From Escherichia coli (GTDB taxonomy: Bacteria > Pseudomonadota > Gammaproteobacteria > Enterobacterales > Enterobacteriaceae), in the NCBI RefSeq assembly GCF_003334405.1, contig NZ_QOWM01000004.1: 64,000 nt of DNA; one strand, given 5' to 3'. Below are positions 9,505 to 22,552 of this stretch, in pieces (positions within the stretch are counted from its first letter, which is position 1; every line of letters starts with the position of its first letter). The translations under genes and the position numbers were made by a program. The notes below the pieces were generated by a model, which had not been told where the DNA came from, searched no databases, and was given only the letters and a program-made list of their open reading frames with translations.

Positions 9505-11787
<2,283 letters not shown>

Positions 11788-11841
11788 GTAACACCTACCT
11801 TCTTAAGTGGATTTTTTATTTACTGCGTACTTCGACAACCA

Positions 11842-12699
11842 TTAATGGTGGTCGTTTTCACGCAGGTAAATGACCCAGTATGTCAACCCAACCAACAAAC
11901 CACCACCGATAATGTTGCCGATCGTAACCGGAATCAGGTTATCAGTGATGAAATTCATCACGGTCAGGTGAGAAAAATTTTCCGGTGCAGAACCGACTGC
12001 GGTCCAAAATTCCGGGGATGCGAAGTCGCGGATTACAATACCCATCGGGATCATAAACATGTTTGCGATACTGTGCTCAAAACCGCTGGCAACAAACATC
12101 GCGACCGGCAGCACCATAATGAACGCTTTGTCCATCAGGCTGCGGCCAGAATAACTCATCCATACTGCCAGACATACCATCAGGTTTGCCAGGATACCAA
12201 GACAGACGGCCTCAATAAAAGTATGGTGCACTTTGTGGTCGGCGGTTTGTAGGACGTTTAGTCCCCATTGACCATTTGCGGTCATATACTCGCCGGAAAG
12301 CCACATTAAAAGTACAAACAGCAGTGCGCCGACCAGGTTGCCAAAATAGACATTTAGCCAGTTTTTCGCCAACTGACCCCAGGTGATGCGCCCACTCGCC
12401 TTAGCAACAACAATCAACACGGTGGAAGTAAAGAGATCGGCTCCGCAGACAACACAAAGAATCAGCCCCAGAGAGAAGCAAATGCCGCCAACCAGTTTTG
12501 CCATGCCGAAGGGCATTGTGCCTGTGCCAGTGGTTGCTGTGATATAGAAGACGAATGCGATTGAGATGAAAACACCGGCGGTAATCGCCAGATAGAAAGT
12601 CTTAAGCGGATGTTTCGTTGCTTTATAGACACCCGCCTCTTCGGCCACTTTGGCCATTGCAGCAGGAAGTAAAAGATCAAAAGGGTTGTCAGCTTTCAC
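11842..12699 (-). CDS. focA: formate channel FocA
   Basis: 285 aa from a GTG start (cac on plus at 12697..12699), reading MKADNPFDLLLPAAMAKVAEEAGVYKATKHPLKTFYLAIT...; the track ORF from ATG at 12873 is a 58-codon upstream extension into the promoter region. Confidence 0.9.
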   Translation of the reverse strand: MKADNPFDLLLPAAMAKVAEEAGVYKATKHPLKTFYLAITAGVFISIAFVFYITATTGTGTMPFGMAKLVGGICFSLGLILCVVCGADLFTSTVLIVVAKASGRITWGQLAKNWLNVYFGNLVGALLFVLLMWLSGEYMTANGQWGLNVLQTADHKVHHTFIEAVCLGILANLMVCLAVWMSYSGRSLMDKAFIMVLPVAMFVASGFEHSIANMFMIPMGIVIRDFASPEFWTAVGSAPENFSHLTVMNFITDNLIPVTIGNIIGGGLLVGLTYWVIYLRENDHH

Positions 12700-12749
12700 A
12701 CTAACTCTCTCTTTATTAAGTCGGCGACGAGATACTAACAAAGCATTAT

Positions 12750-12763
12750 AGATGAGAAATTGA
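12750..12763 (-). promoter_or_regulatory. FNR-type binding site upstream of focA-pflB
   Basis: TTGATatagATCAT matches the FNR consensus TTGAT-N4-ATCAA at 9 of 10 positions; lies 51-64 bp upstream of the focA GTG start; focA-pflB is a known FNR-activated operon. Confidence 0.45.
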
Positions 12764-13104
12764 TATAGATCATATCTCGCCTGGCTTATAGGCCCGTAAC
12801 TCGCATGGTTTTTATGCAAATACGGAGTAAATATTTGATTATCCAAATAAAAATAAATTTTAAAAATTAACAAATGAGTTGAATTTTTTCCGCATCCTCC
12901 GCTAAAACAGTTAATTAAAAGGGAGCATCAGGCGAATAAAGTAACAATATCGATCGTATTTATTAAATACAAATTACCGATATTTAACCTTATAATTACA
13001 ATTATTTTATTAATGCAAATATATGTAAAGCGGGGCATTAAAAAAACGCCCCGTAATATAACTCAGACTAATCATTAAGCCTACATTGCGTAGGCTATTT
13101 GATT

Positions 13105-14865
13105 TTATTTTGCCCAGAATGCTGCTTTGGCGCGCTGCAGCTTTTCGTAGGCCTTCAACAACGACTGATGTGCAGCAAACGCGTGCAGATCGCTATCTAC
13201 CGGTTGCAGGCCGTAAAACGCCGCTTCGCCGCTCATTGCCGCACTGGCGGCTTCTACGGCATCTGCGCCGTACATGCGAACAAACGCATTCAGATATTGC
13301 AGCGGCTGGCGATCTTCTTCCTGTGCCAGTAATAACAACGTTTGCAGGCAGCGATAATAGTTGGCGCGTTCCGGACTAAATACTGATGAGTTAAACTCCA
13401 TCGTCCATTCGGTCCAGACCAGAGCCTGTTCCAGATCGCCACCAGCCAGCGCCAGCATGGCTTTTAATTCACCGATACGCAGGGTGTACCAACCGTTATC
13501 CGACCCGGTCGCCAGACCCAACAGCTCACGCACGCGGGTAAAGTCATCAAAACCTTCTTCATCCAGTTGCTCGATGAGGTTCAGGTAATCTTCTTTTTCC
13601 CACTCGCTGCCTGGTAGCGAAAGAATCGTTTCACGTAAATGGCTGCCCATACTGTTATTCGCGAGCCACAGATCTTCAGCCGGATAAATATCGGACATGC
13701 CAGGCACGATAATACGGCAAGCATAAACGCCCAGATGCTCGTAATCGGCAATATAAACTTCTTTATCTTCTTTGTTGAAGATAGCCATCAGTGTGGCGAA
13801 CTCTTCTTCCGTGGTGCCGGAGAAATTCCAGTCCACAAACGGATAATCGGCATCCTGCTTGAACAGGTCCCAGGAGATTAAACCGCTGGAATCGATAAAG
13901 TGCGTTTCGAGGTTGGTATGTTCAGCGACTTCTTCATCATCGAAGGTTGGCGGAGTAAACACATCCAAATCTTTCAGGCCACGACCTTGCAGCAGCTCGG
14001 TCACGGTACGTTCCAGTGCTACGCCAAAATCAGGATGCGCACCGAAAGAGGCAAAGCAGGTACCGTTAGCAGGATTGAACAGTACCACGCAAATCACCGG
14101 ATACTGGCCGCCAAGCGAACCGTCATAAGCGAAGATTGGGAAACCCTCCGCTTCCAGCGTTTCGATGGCTTCAACTACTGCTGGGTAACGCGCCAGCACG
14201 TCTGCCGGGATCTCTGGCAGGCTGATGCTTTCAGCAATAATGCGGTTTTTCACGTAGCGTTCGAAAACTTCAGACAATCCCTGAACGCGTGCTTCGTTGC
14301 GGGTATTACCTGCGGACATACCGTTGGAGACGTACAGGTTACCAATGATATTCATCGGAATATAAACGGTCTGATTGTCGGACTGACGCGTAAACGGCAG
14401 GCCGCAAATACCACGATCTTCGTTACCGGATTGTAGGTCAATCAGCATGCTGCCGGTCAGTTCATTCTCCGGATCATAAAACGCGCGCAGACGGTCATCG
14501 AGCAGCCCTTCTGGCACATCGTCATTTTCGGTCAGTGGGAACCATTTTTCGTTGGGATAATGCACGAACGGACCGTTGGCGATGGTTTCGCCCAGCCAGA
14601 AGTCCGCAAAAAAGTAGTTGGTTGAGAGACGCTCGAAATATTCACCGAGTGCAGAAGCCAGCGCCGCTTTCTTGGTTGCGCCTTTACCGTTGGTAAAACA
14701 CAGTGCGCACTCTTTGTCGCGAATATGTACAGACCAGACGTTAGGCACGGGATTCAGCCAGGAGGCCTCTTCAATCTGAAAGCCGAGGTCTGAAAGTTTT
14801 TGCTGGAAGCGAGCGATGGAATCTTCCAGAGCGGCATCTTTGCCGGGGATAAATGTTTGCGTCAT
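13105..14865 (-). CDS. ycaO: YcaO-domain protein (ribosomal protein S12 methylthiolation accessory factor)
   Basis: ATG at 14863..14865 gives 586 aa MTQTFIPGKDAALEDSIARFQQKLSDLGFQIEEASWLNPVPNVWSVHIRD...; matches E. coli YcaO. Confidence 0.92.
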   Translation of the reverse strand: MTQTFIPGKDAALEDSIARFQQKLSDLGFQIEEASWLNPVPNVWSVHIRDKECALCFTNGKGATKKAALASALGEYFERLSTNYFFADFWLGETIANGPFVHYPNEKWFPLTENDDVPEGLLDDRLRAFYDPENELTGSMLIDLQSGNEDRGICGLPFTRQSDNQTVYIPMNIIGNLYVSNGMSAGNTRNEARVQGLSEVFERYVKNRIIAESISLPEIPADVLARYPAVVEAIETLEAEGFPIFAYDGSLGGQYPVICVVLFNPANGTCFASFGAHPDFGVALERTVTELLQGRGLKDLDVFTPPTFDDEEVAEHTNLETHFIDSSGLISWDLFKQDADYPFVDWNFSGTTEEEFATLMAIFNKEDKEVYIADYEHLGVYACRIIVPGMSDIYPAEDLWLANNSMGSHLRETILSLPGSEWEKEDYLNLIEQLDEEGFDDFTRVRELLGLATGSDNGWYTLRIGELKAMLALAGGDLEQALVWTEWTMEFNSSVFSPERANYYRCLQTLLLLAQEEDRQPLQYLNAFVRMYGADAVEAASAAMSGEAAFYGLQPVDSDLHAFAAHQSLLKAYEKLQRAKAAFWAK

Positions 14866-14994
14866 GAAAATCACTTTAGTCGTACGGAAAGCGCGCAATA
14901 ATACGGGTTTTATCTCAAAGGCGCTATCACCGCCGCCATGCCGATGAACTGTTGACTATGCTTTTAGCGGATAAACCACGTTAAGAGCATAAAA

Positions 14995-15687
14995 ATGAAG
15001 GCGTTCGATCTCCACCGTATGGCATTTGATAAAGTGCCTTTTGATTTCCTTGGCGAAGTTGCACTACGTAGTCTTTATACCTTTGTACTGGTCTTTTTGT
15101 TCCTCAAAATGACCGGAAGACGCGGTGTGCGGCAGATGTCGCTGTTTGAAGTTTTAATCATTCTGACGCTGGGATCAGCGGCGGGAGATGTGGCGTTTTA
15201 TGATGATGTGCCGATGGTCCCGGTACTTATCGTCTTTATTACTCTGGCGTTGTTATACCGCCTGGTAATGTGGTTGATGGCGCACAGTGAAAAACTGGAA
15301 GATCTTCTGGAAGGCAAGCCAGTTGTCATTATTGAAGATGGCGAGCTGGCCTGGTCGAAACTCAATAACTCCAACATGACGGAATTTGAGTTCTTTATGG
15401 AGCTACGATTGCGTGGCGTGGAGCAGCTGGGGCAGGTACGTCTGGCGATTCTCGAAACCAACGGGCAAATCAGTGTCTATTTCTTTGAAGATGACAAGGT
15501 GAAACCGGGTTTACTTATTTTACCCAGTGATTGTACGCAGCGTTACAAAGTGGTGCCGGAGTCGGCGGACTATGCCTGTATTCGTTGTAGTGAAATCATT
15601 CATATGAAAGCGGGGGAAAAACAATTATGTCCGCGCTGTGCAAATCCAGAATGGACGAAGGCAAGTCGGGCAAAACGGGTGACCTGA
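14995..15687 (+). CDS. ycaP: DUF421-family membrane protein YcaP
   Basis: ORF 230 aa, MKAFDLHRMAFDKVPFDFLGEVALRSLYTFVLVFLFLKMTGRRGVRQMSLFEV... Confidence 0.88.
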   Translation: MKAFDLHRMAFDKVPFDFLGEVALRSLYTFVLVFLFLKMTGRRGVRQMSLFEVLIILTLGSAAGDVAFYDDVPMVPVLIVFITLALLYRLVMWLMAHSEKLEDLLEGKPVVIIEDGELAWSKLNNSNMTEFEFFMELRLRGVEQLGQVRLAILETNGQISVYFFEDDKVKPGLLILPSDCTQRYKVVPESADYACIRCSEIIHMKAGEKQLCPRCANPEWTKASRAKRVT

Positions 15688-15733
15688 CAGTAAAAACATC
15701 GGCTTTTTGCTAATAATCCGAGAGATTCTTTTG

Positions 15734-15749
15734 TGTGATGCAAGCCACA
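15734..15749. promoter_or_regulatory. CRP-like site upstream of serC
   Basis: TGTGAtgcaagCCACA versus consensus TGTGA-N6-TCACA (9 of 10 half-site positions); about 140 bp upstream of the serC ATG. Confidence 0.3.
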
Positions 15750-15885
15750 TTTTTGCCCTCAACGGTTTTACTCATTGCGATGTGTGTCACTGAATGATAA
15801 AACCGATAGCCACAGGAATAATGTATTACCTGTGGTCGCAATCGATTGACCGCGGGTTAATAGCAACGCAACGTGGTGAGGGGAA

Positions 15886-16974
15886 ATGGCTCAAATCTTC
15901 AATTTTAGTTCTGGTCCGGCAATGCTACCGGCAGAGGTGCTTAAACAGGCTCAACAGGAACTGCGCGACTGGAACGGTCTTGGTACGTCGGTGATGGAAG
16001 TGAGTCACCGTGGCAAAGAGTTCATTCAGGTTGCAGAGGAAGCCGAGAAGGATTTTCGCGATCTTCTTAATGTCCCCTCCAACTACAAGGTATTATTCTG
16101 CCATGGCGGTGGTCGCGGTCAGTTTGCTGCGGTACCGCTGAATATTCTCGGTGATAAAACCACCGCAGATTATGTTGATGCCGGTTACTGGGCGGCAAGT
16201 GCCATTAAAGAAGCGAAAAAATACTGCACGCCTAATGTCTTTGACGCCAAAGTGACTGTTGATGGTCTGCGCGCGGTTAAGCCAATGCGTGAATGGCAAC
16301 TCTCTGATAATGCTGCTTATATGCATTATTGCCCGAATGAAACCATCGATGGTATCGCCATCGACGAAACGCCAGACTTCGGCGCAGATGTGGTGGTCGC
16401 CGCTGACTTCTCTTCAACCATTCTTTCCCGTCCGATTGACGTCAGCCGTTATGGTGTAATTTACGCTGGCGCGCAGAAAAATATCGGCCCGGCTGGCCTG
16501 ACAATCGTCATCGTTCGTGAAGATTTGCTGGGCAAAGCGAATATCGCGTGTCCGTCGATTCTGGATTATTCCATCCTCAACGATAACGGCTCCATGTTTA
16601 ACACGCCGCCGACATTTGCCTGGTATCTATCTGGTCTGGTCTTTAAATGGCTGAAAGCGAACGGCGGTGTAGCTGAAATGGATAAAATCAATCAGCAAAA
16701 AGCAGAACTGCTATATGGGGTGATTGATAACAGCGATTTCTACCGCAATGACGTGGCGAAAGCTAACCGTTCGCGGATGAACGTGCCGTTCCAGTTGGCG
16801 GACAGTGCGCTTGACAAATTGTTCCTTGAAGAGTCTTTTGCTGCTGGCCTTCATGCACTGAAAGGTCACCGTGTGGTCGGCGGAATGCGCGCTTCTATTT
16901 ATAACGCCATGCCGCTGGAAGGCGTTAAAGCGCTGACAGACTTCATGGTTGAGTTCGAACGCCGTCACGGTTAA
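15886..16974 (+). CDS. serC: phosphoserine aminotransferase
   Basis: ORF 362 aa, [46 protein letters not shown]... Confidence 0.97.
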
Positions 16975-22397: not shown

Positions 22398-22552
22398 ATT
22401 TCTCTAATCTGGAACTGGAAGCTGCCTCGCAGAGTTTTGAACAGTTTTCACCCTTTCGTTAAATTCTTCTGAATATGCCTCGGGGAACGCAAAATTCCCA
22501 CCAGACAACCGCTCAACAAAGTTGCACACTTTCCATAAACAGGGAGGGGTGC

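Follow-up and report, generated by a model that had tools for sequence, protein, structure and literature searches.

The closest described relative of the gene considered here is E. coli YcaO itself (EcYcaO; UniProt P75838; PDB 4Q84, 4Q85 and 4Q86), which is the same gene, with 586 of 586 residues identical and the same chromosomal context, and the only difference is that between the name carried by the database entry, that of an S12 accessory protein, and the function since demonstrated at uL16 Met82. Cryo-EM and LC-MS/MS had revealed that Met82 of the ribosomal protein uL16 carries a backbone thioamide, for which YcaO was suggested as the maker (PMC7550191). Rice et al. (Biochemistry 2026) subsequently reported that EcYcaO directly thioamidates uL16 Met82 (PMC13063428). 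In that work the ~16-Da modification at uL16 Met82 was gone from ribosomes of the Keio ycaO deletion strain, with high-resolution MS/MS distinguishing loss of the thioamide sulfur from loss of an oxygen atom; co-expression led to complete uL16 thioamidation, which was not reached with ATP-site variants such as E202A; and purified MBP-YcaO modified full-length uL16 in vitro in a reaction needing ATP, MgCl2 and Na2S (PMC13063428). Neither digested uL16 nor peptides of 11 and 21 residues served as substrates, and folded uL16 is bound with a Kd of 9.8 nM through a large electrostatic interface (PMC13063428). A proteome-wide AlphaFold3 screen gave confident scores only for uL16, uL29 and YcaO itself, and uL16 alone placed a loop, the one containing Met82, into the YcaO active site (PMC13063428). 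The orthologues of K. pneumoniae and P. aeruginosa make the same uL16 modification. Deletion of ycaO causes no growth defect by itself in LB or M9, and in minimal medium it suppresses the slow growth caused by deletion of roxA (PMC13063428).

Two other families offer useful comparisons. The methanogen enzyme acting on a glycine of McrA (TIGR03266; M. jannaschii MJ1094, PDB 6PE3 and 6PEU) shares the YcaO domain and carries out ATP-dependent backbone thioamidation, both the McrA and the uL16 enzymes target a folded or large protein near its active centre, and M. jannaschii is without tfuA and yet has the modification, as is the case in E. coli. However, EcYcaO is only distantly related to the methanogen type, matching 6PE3 with an E-value of 7e-4 and scoring 39.1 bits on TIGR03266 against a cut-off of 365. 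The methanogen protein is 385 aa long, lacks the YcaO_C/TPR segment and is usually paired with tfuA, and short McrA peptides suffice as its substrate, in contrast to EcYcaO, which acts on uL16 only when this is full-length and folded. Neither the score nor the adjacent tfuA gene of a TfuA-associated thioamide YcaO is found at the locus described here. The TOMM cyclodehydratases (SagD, TIGR03604; McbD; LynD/PatD) have in common with EcYcaO the YcaO ATP-binding fold and amide O-phosphorylation, although their nucleophile is a Cys, Ser or Thr side chain and that of EcYcaO is external sulfur. EcYcaO scores well below the TOMM threshold (43.7 bits on TIGR03604 against a cut-off of 219.25) and, unlike the TOMM enzymes, has no E1-like, Ocin-ThiF or RRE partner, no dehydrogenase, no nearby precursor and no C-terminal PxPxP motif.

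The ycaO gene and its product

The window analysed here is a 64,000-nucleotide stretch of E. coli DNA, and the features that enter the argument are these:

9505..11787, minus strand: pflB (NCBIfam)
11842..12699, minus strand: focA (NCBIfam)
13031..13104, minus strand: ycaO 3' untranslated end with two hairpins, at 13070..13104 and 13031..13053 (RNA folding)
13105..14865, minus strand: ycaO coding sequence, 586 aa plus stop codon (open reading frame list and translation, PDB identity, NF040716, RefSeq)
13123..13647, minus strand: C-terminal, TPR-like YcaO_C domain, aa 407-581 (Pfam PF18381, E 3.5e-65)
13693..14691, minus strand: catalytic YcaO domain, ATP/Mg2+-dependent and amide-activating, aa 59-391 (Pfam PF02624, E 4e-75)
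14866..14994, no strand assigned: divergent ycaO/ycaP intergenic region of 129 bases, the presumed ycaO promoter
14995..15687, plus strand: ycaP (DUF421), the neighbour in RefSeq, with serC and aroA coming next

The ycaO reading frame runs from an ATG at 14865 to a stop codon at 13105..13107 and its translation has 586 residues. The longest mechanical frame starts at a TTG at 14898, 11 codons upstream of the ATG, and would give 597 residues; the orthologues match the 586-residue form in length. An open frame of ~590 codons in DNA of ~50% GC is far beyond chance, and the product is identical from residue 1 to 586 to PDB 4Q84, 4Q85 and 4Q86 (100% identity, 1356 bits); the crystal structures with a bound ATP analogue have this identical sequence. 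RefSeq names the gene at this position ycaO, between focA and ycaP (DUF421), and the 2.5-kb stretch containing it (12600..15100) occurs in every complete E. coli genome searched (5426 of 5426), with many of the copies 100% identical. The gene is already known: it is annotated, its product has been crystallised and its substrate has been published since 2026, and as a find from a genome scan it holds nothing new.

The domain assignments are equally clear. The PF02624 match spans the whole of the model (positions 1-325 of 325) and the TIGR00702 score of 574.8 bits lies far above its cut-off of 75.65 in NCBIfam, both placing the protein in the YcaO superfamily, and the NCBIfam equivalog NF040716 (917.2 bits against a cut-off of 700) together with YcaO_C places it in the uL16-thioamidating group. 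YcaO_C, of ~150 residues, is a tetratricopeptide-repeat domain through which the protein dimerises and which may help to bind uL16 (PMC13063428).

Residues E75, E78, E199, E202, R203 and R286 are all present, and in an alignment reaching down to 34% identity they are kept in 28 to 31 of 32 relatives. Five of these (E75, E78, E199, R203 and R286) are reported to bind ATP and Mg2+ in the 2014 EcYcaO structure paper. E202 is named as an ATP-site residue by Rice et al. (PMC13063428), and every residue mutated in that study is found here at its stated position (L55, F57, R79, D88, E202, R295, T317, E320, D325, L329, R444, R463 and F491). The computed pI is 4.38, with 92 acidic (D+E) and 42 basic (K+R) residues, in the acidic range of the uL16 group; a value of 4.4 has been reported for EcYcaO, and acidity complementary to basic uL16 is the criterion used by those authors (PMC13063428). 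The N-terminal, YcaO and YcaO_C segments are each acidic (pI 4.3-4.75), and the full-length relatives are mostly acidic as well (pI mainly 4.3-5.6), which fits the charge complementarity that Rice et al. proposed.

Flanks and neighbourhood of ycaO

In the identical K-12-type region in RefSeq the gene order is pflA, pflB, focA, ycaO, ycaP, serC, aroA, ycaL, cmk, rpsA, and within ~20 kb on each side of ycaO the RefSeq annotation contains no gene for an E1-like/ThiF protein, an Ocin-ThiF (RRE) protein, TfuA, a ThiS/MoaD-like protein or a dehydrogenase. The combination of an adjacent E1-like or Ocin-ThiF partner with a precursor gene is absent. We note in addition that a PADLOC scan of YcaO and YcaP for known defence systems gave no match, and that assignment was set aside.

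Because the substrate of a characterised YcaO enzyme is in most cases a precursor peptide whose gene lies close by (PMC13063428), a cryptic RiPP enzyme with a short precursor gene left unannotated in a flanking intergenic region has to be considered. The longest ORF in the two flanks (12700..13104 and 14866..14994) has only 36 residues; it starts with ATG, lies at 12928..13038 on the minus strand directly downstream of ycaO, and is accompanied in 12700..13104 by several ORFs of 21 aa, and no ORF of at least 20 aa lies wholly within 14866..14994. The 36-residue ORF is nevertheless a poor candidate for a precursor gene, in that it begins within the putative terminator hairpin described below, runs through poorly aligned promoter DNA of 31% GC, and has no counterpart in Klebsiella or Pantoea. 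The orthologous loci compared were those of Klebsiella (YcaO 91% identical) and of two Pantoea-type genomes (85%), and no small ORF of 12 aa or more, from either flank, recurred from one genus to another among the four genera compared. An Rfam scan of 11500..16500 (E<=1) had no match and thus revealed no known RNA element on either side of the gene. These observations, the TOMM comparison given above and the fact that a real distal protein substrate, uL16, is now known together make a hidden precursor gene barely credible.

Most of the first-pass annotation of this DNA agrees with these results. It had placed a 586-aa ycaO gene at 13105-14865, which the PDB 4Q84 identity and RefSeq confirm, and had named focA-pflB and ycaP as its neighbours, as RefSeq and NCBIfam also do. 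Its statement that no E1-like, Ocin-ThiF-like or precursor gene is adjacent holds over the ~20 kb of annotation on each side and among the flank ORFs, and its report of no ORF longer than 60 aa in 12700..13104 and 14866..14994 is in keeping with the maximum of 36 aa. The assignment to a non-RiPP class of YcaO is sustained by the TIGR03604 score below cut-off and by the lack of a precursor and of a partner, and the conserved small precursor-like ORF beside ycaO, named in advance as the finding that would count against this assignment, was looked for across genera and not found.

The position of ycaO upstream of the formate genes raises a different possibility, that it is coupled to the focA-pflB-pflA operon, for example by modifying PflB or by responding to anaerobiosis. 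E. coli, Klebsiella and Pantoea share the order ycaO-focA-pflB-pflA on one strand, Watson et al. had remarked on this synteny among Gammaproteobacteria (PMC7550191), and the other known protein thioamide is likewise found in an enzyme of anaerobes. The structure of the spacer argues otherwise. The ycaO 3' end folds with an energy of -29.8 kcal/mol (z = -4.07 relative to shuffled sequences), and the second hairpin, at 13031..13053, is G+C-rich, is followed by a U-rich stretch and is a probable transcription terminator, judged from its sequence. Klebsiella and Pantoea have at the equivalent place their own, different hairpin and a U-rich stretch (a U-run in Pantoea), and terminator-like hairpins in three genera fit a monocistronic ycaO that would be insulated from focA. 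RNA folding was more informative than consensus scanning at this end of the gene: a promoter and terminator consensus scan of 12600..15100 gave counts equal to those of shuffled sequence and overlooked the second hairpin, whose loop is short in the folded form. Nor did that scan turn up a strong sigma-70 match between ycaO and ycaP.

Good conservation in the ycaO-focA spacer is limited to one block at its focA-proximal end, where there are an FNR-like site, TTGATATAGATCAT, at 12760..12773 and a hexamer of the CTATAAT type. From what is known of the pfl operon we take this block to be non-coding DNA of the focA-pflB promoter, and conservation confined to this separate promoter speaks against a coupling to ycaO.

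The relatives of EcYcaO bear on the same question. When representatives clustered at 50% identity were searched exhaustively, 2679 YcaO relatives were found, 665 of them at E<=1e-30, and the neighbourhoods of several are as follows:

Klebsiella (91% identity) and Pantoea-type (85%): ycaO-focA-pflB-pflA on one strand, serC-aroA-cmk-rpsA on the other side; the Pantoea-type loci lack ycaP
P0121 (67%): an RNase G/E-like gene and lysS on one side, a cmoB-type methyltransferase gene on the other
P0122 (53%): a ClC channel gene and a YkuD-like gene
P0123 (54%): an OsmC-YcaO fusion with unrelated neighbours
P0124 (51%): a short contig, neighbours without identification

In the neighbourhoods of P0121 to P0124 (51-67% identity) there is no focA-pfl, no TfuA, ThiS or E1-like protein and no conserved small ORF. 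Since the synteny is lost in these relatives from outside Enterobacterales, whose neighbourhoods all differ from one another, the linkage mirrors lineage history rather than function, and from the comparison of gene orders the ycaO-focA-pfl arrangement appears to be an inherited synteny of Enterobacterales and not a functional operon. The thioamide is moreover present in ribosomes of aerobically grown cells, focA-pfl is transcribed independently (PMC7550191), and PflB, FocA and PflA are without a confident score in the proteome-wide AlphaFold3 screen (PMC13063428). We thus regard a role in the formate operon as highly improbable. What is constant in the YcaO subfamily is that the gene stands alone.

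uL16 as the substrate, and the S12 connection

We consider it very probable that the product of ycaO is a trans-acting thioamidase of folded uL16, the product of rplP encoded elsewhere, and that it stands alone and has no role in the focA-pfl operon. The uL16 function comes mainly from one recent paper from one laboratory (PMC13063428) and not from sequence tools; the checks made here, of pI, of the presence of the mutated residues and of active-site conservation, agree with that paper. Architecture, charge, active-site conservation, the absence of partners and the probable transcriptional insulation are as expected of a trans-acting housekeeping modifier.

A plausible course of the reaction can be outlined. 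YcaO acts in trans as a homodimeric, very acidic, ATP/Mg2+-dependent amide-activating enzyme, and uL16, a highly conserved housekeeping protein, would be recognised through its fold and through charge complementarity, with its long basic loop entering the YcaO active site. By analogy with the steps established for the superfamily, a sulfur nucleophile would attack the backbone carbonyl of Met82, and ATP would then phosphorylate the hemiorthoamide oxygen, after which phosphate would leave. The product is a backbone thioamide near the peptidyl-transferase centre, adjoining the 3-hydroxy-Arg81 made by RoxA. A substrate recognised by fold and charge calls for neither a leader-peptide partner nor an adjacent precursor, which would account for the stand-alone appearance of the gene. 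The case also illustrates how the substrate of an orphan YcaO, one without a precursor gene beside it, can be a housekeeping protein encoded at a distance.

RefSeq and NCBIfam nonetheless label the protein an S12 methylthiotransferase accessory factor, and a primary role as an accessory to the RimO-dependent beta-methylthiolation of S12 Asp88 is the reading that this name conveys, although the label is only a name and describes no feature of the sequence. The underlying data are those of Strader et al. 2011, as summarised by Rice et al. (PMC13063428), in which YcaO co-purified with tagged S12 and deletion of ycaO lowered the S12 modification from 99% to 84%. That effect is small, however, and Rice et al. 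argue that it is indirect at most: RimO needs no partner to modify an S12 peptide in vitro, and deletion of rimO abolishes the modification fully (PMC13063428). The AlphaFold3 complexes with uS12 (ipTM 0.31) and RimO (0.16) are not confident (PMC13063428), side-chain methylthiolation does not require the backbone amide activation that a YcaO domain provides, and both rimO and rpsL lie outside the annotated 42.5-kb stretch around ycaO. We therefore hold a primary S12 role to be quite improbable, and the effect of YcaO on S12 and RimO is probably indirect. The co-purification of YcaO with S12 and uL29 in earlier work may point to additional roles of YcaO. In a weaker variant of the sulfur-relay reading given below, likewise unlikely, YcaO would work on ribosomes during their assembly and not on free uL16, and this would be the source of both the small effect on S12 and the contact with uL29.

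Two statements of the first-pass annotation are superseded by the uL16 work: it had linked YcaO to the RimO-dependent methylthiolation of S12, and it had attributed thioamide formation to YcaO enzymes of other bacteria, whereas EcYcaO itself forms a thioamide, at uL16 Met82 (PMC13063428). The survival of the S12 name in RefSeq and NCBIfam explains the RimO reading. That name is misleading for an enzyme that makes a rare backbone thioamide in uL16, by the peptidyl-transferase centre.

Sulfur delivery, OsmC fusions and a ycaI variant

Returning to the thioamidation of uL16, the sulfide used in vitro is non-physiological and E. coli is without TfuA (PMC13063428). TfuA is likewise absent from seven distinct neighbourhoods of relatives and from the E. 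coli locus examined here. One relative, P0123 (locus L009), is a fusion of OsmC and YcaO parts that is 54% identical to EcYcaO and passes both TIGR03549 and NF040716 (867 bits). As in other OsmC/YcaO fusions (TIGR03549), its YcaO and YcaO_C part is orthologue-like; the protein is acidic (pI 4.72) and stands alone in its locus. It differs from E. coli YcaO in having an extra N-terminal OsmC-like domain of ~145 aa, and EcYcaO itself scores 682 on TIGR03549 against a cut-off of 900. This OsmC-like domain is of the thiol-peroxidase fold and contains cysteine.

A possible reading of the fusion is that uL16-type YcaO enzymes obtain sulfur through a cysteine persulfide or thiol relay, with the fused OsmC-like domain serving as the relay and a separately encoded carrier doing so in E. 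coli, and this we think unlikely. When the P0123 domain was compared by BLASTP with E. coli OsmC, from which it is distant, the match was not significant (E = 9), and we accordingly make no claim that the P0123 cysteines correspond to the catalytic ones of OsmC. Fusion to OsmC is not a general trait of long YcaO forms: among 14 long relatives (650-1470 aa) only one has OsmC, and the rest have a peptidase S41/PDZ domain, a methyltransferase or none. The TIGR03549 fusions might still bear on the sulfur-delivery step, and are a lead that goes beyond the published work cited here.

A separate observation concerns ycaI, elsewhere in the window. Relative to the K-12-type strain ER1709 there is a 5-bp deletion (CTGGC) at ~24130 within ycaI that splits this ComEC-family gene into two ORFs. 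The window probably stems from an HS-like strain, since the variant is present at >=99% identity in only 20 of the 5426 complete E. coli genomes, including that of E. coli HS, in which RefSeq annotates ycaI as frameshifted.

Genes flanking ycaO

The immediate surroundings of ycaO (window 13105..14865, - strand; product the uL16 thioamidase EcYcaO) and of its relatives include the following features.

Window 14995..15687: ycaP, a DUF421/YetF-like gene
Window 12700..13104: ycaO-focA spacer, 405 bp, 31% GC
L005/L006, upstream of ycaO: RNase E/G-like gene and lysS
L005/L006, downstream of ycaO: cmoB-type tRNA methyltransferase gene

In both E. coli and Klebsiella ycaP is situated between ycaO and serC, and its product has no match among the NCBIfam profiles. 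The Pantoea-type loci (L002/L003:5687-6000), where ycaO and serC are directly divergent, are without ycaP, and hence ycaO has no conserved partner in ycaP. At L005 and L006, the loci of 67%-identical relatives on metagenomic contigs, RNA- and translation-related genes lie on both sides of ycaO, and focA-pfl is absent around it (L005/L006:4363-8801), although this RNA and translation setting may be a coincidence.

On the other side of the E. coli gene, comparison of E. coli with Klebsiella and Pantoea shows that conservation of the spacer is limited to its focA-proximal end. This end includes an FNR-like half-palindrome, TTGATATAGATCAT, at window 12760..12773, some 67 bp before the GTG of focA, together with an IHF-like match at window 12828, and most likely corresponds to the anaerobic promoter region already known for focA-pflB.

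We also note that the focA-ycaO-ycaP stretch is covered at less than 80% in a single one of 5426 complete E. coli genomes. In E. coli KFu015, isolated from river water (NZ_CP147130.1), IS1A is inserted somewhere in this stretch; the match to window 12600..15100 is broken into two parts, with an annotated IS1 transposase.

A fusion of OsmC-like and YcaO domains

One relative of EcYcaO, the cluster representative P0123, has a composite architecture.

L009:6001-8190: P0123, an OsmC-like, YcaO and YcaO_C fusion of 729 aa

Its N-terminal part is an OsmC-like domain with cysteines at positions 50, 59, and 112, and the YcaO plus YcaO_C part is related to EcYcaO at the orthologue level, with 54% identity. 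P0123 passes the cut-offs of both TIGR03549, the OsmC-domain/YcaO fusion family, and NF040716, the NCBIfam equivalog of the EcYcaO group. A BLASTP comparison of the OsmC-like domain with E. coli OsmC gave no significant match. The fusion possibly hints at sulfur or redox handling in uL16-type enzymes that lack TfuA, a partner protein of some other thioamide-forming YcaO proteins.

Other observations in the window

A TTG-start open reading frame of 750 aa (window 9514..11766, + strand) lies antisense to nearly all of pflB (9505..11787, - strand). It is most likely a putative 'shadow' frame arising from the strong codon bias of the highly expressed pflB, rather than a real gene.

Relative to strain ER1709, the window has a 5 bp deletion (CTGGC) at approximately 24130 that breaks ycaI (22475..24812), a ComEC-family gene whose intact form encodes 754 aa in K-12-type strains, into two open reading frames (22475..24139 and 24120..24812). 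The window probably derives from an HS-like strain, since of the 5426 complete E. coli genomes only 20 reach 99% identity or more to this variant, and E. coli HS, in which RefSeq records ycaI as a frameshifted pseudogene, is one of them.
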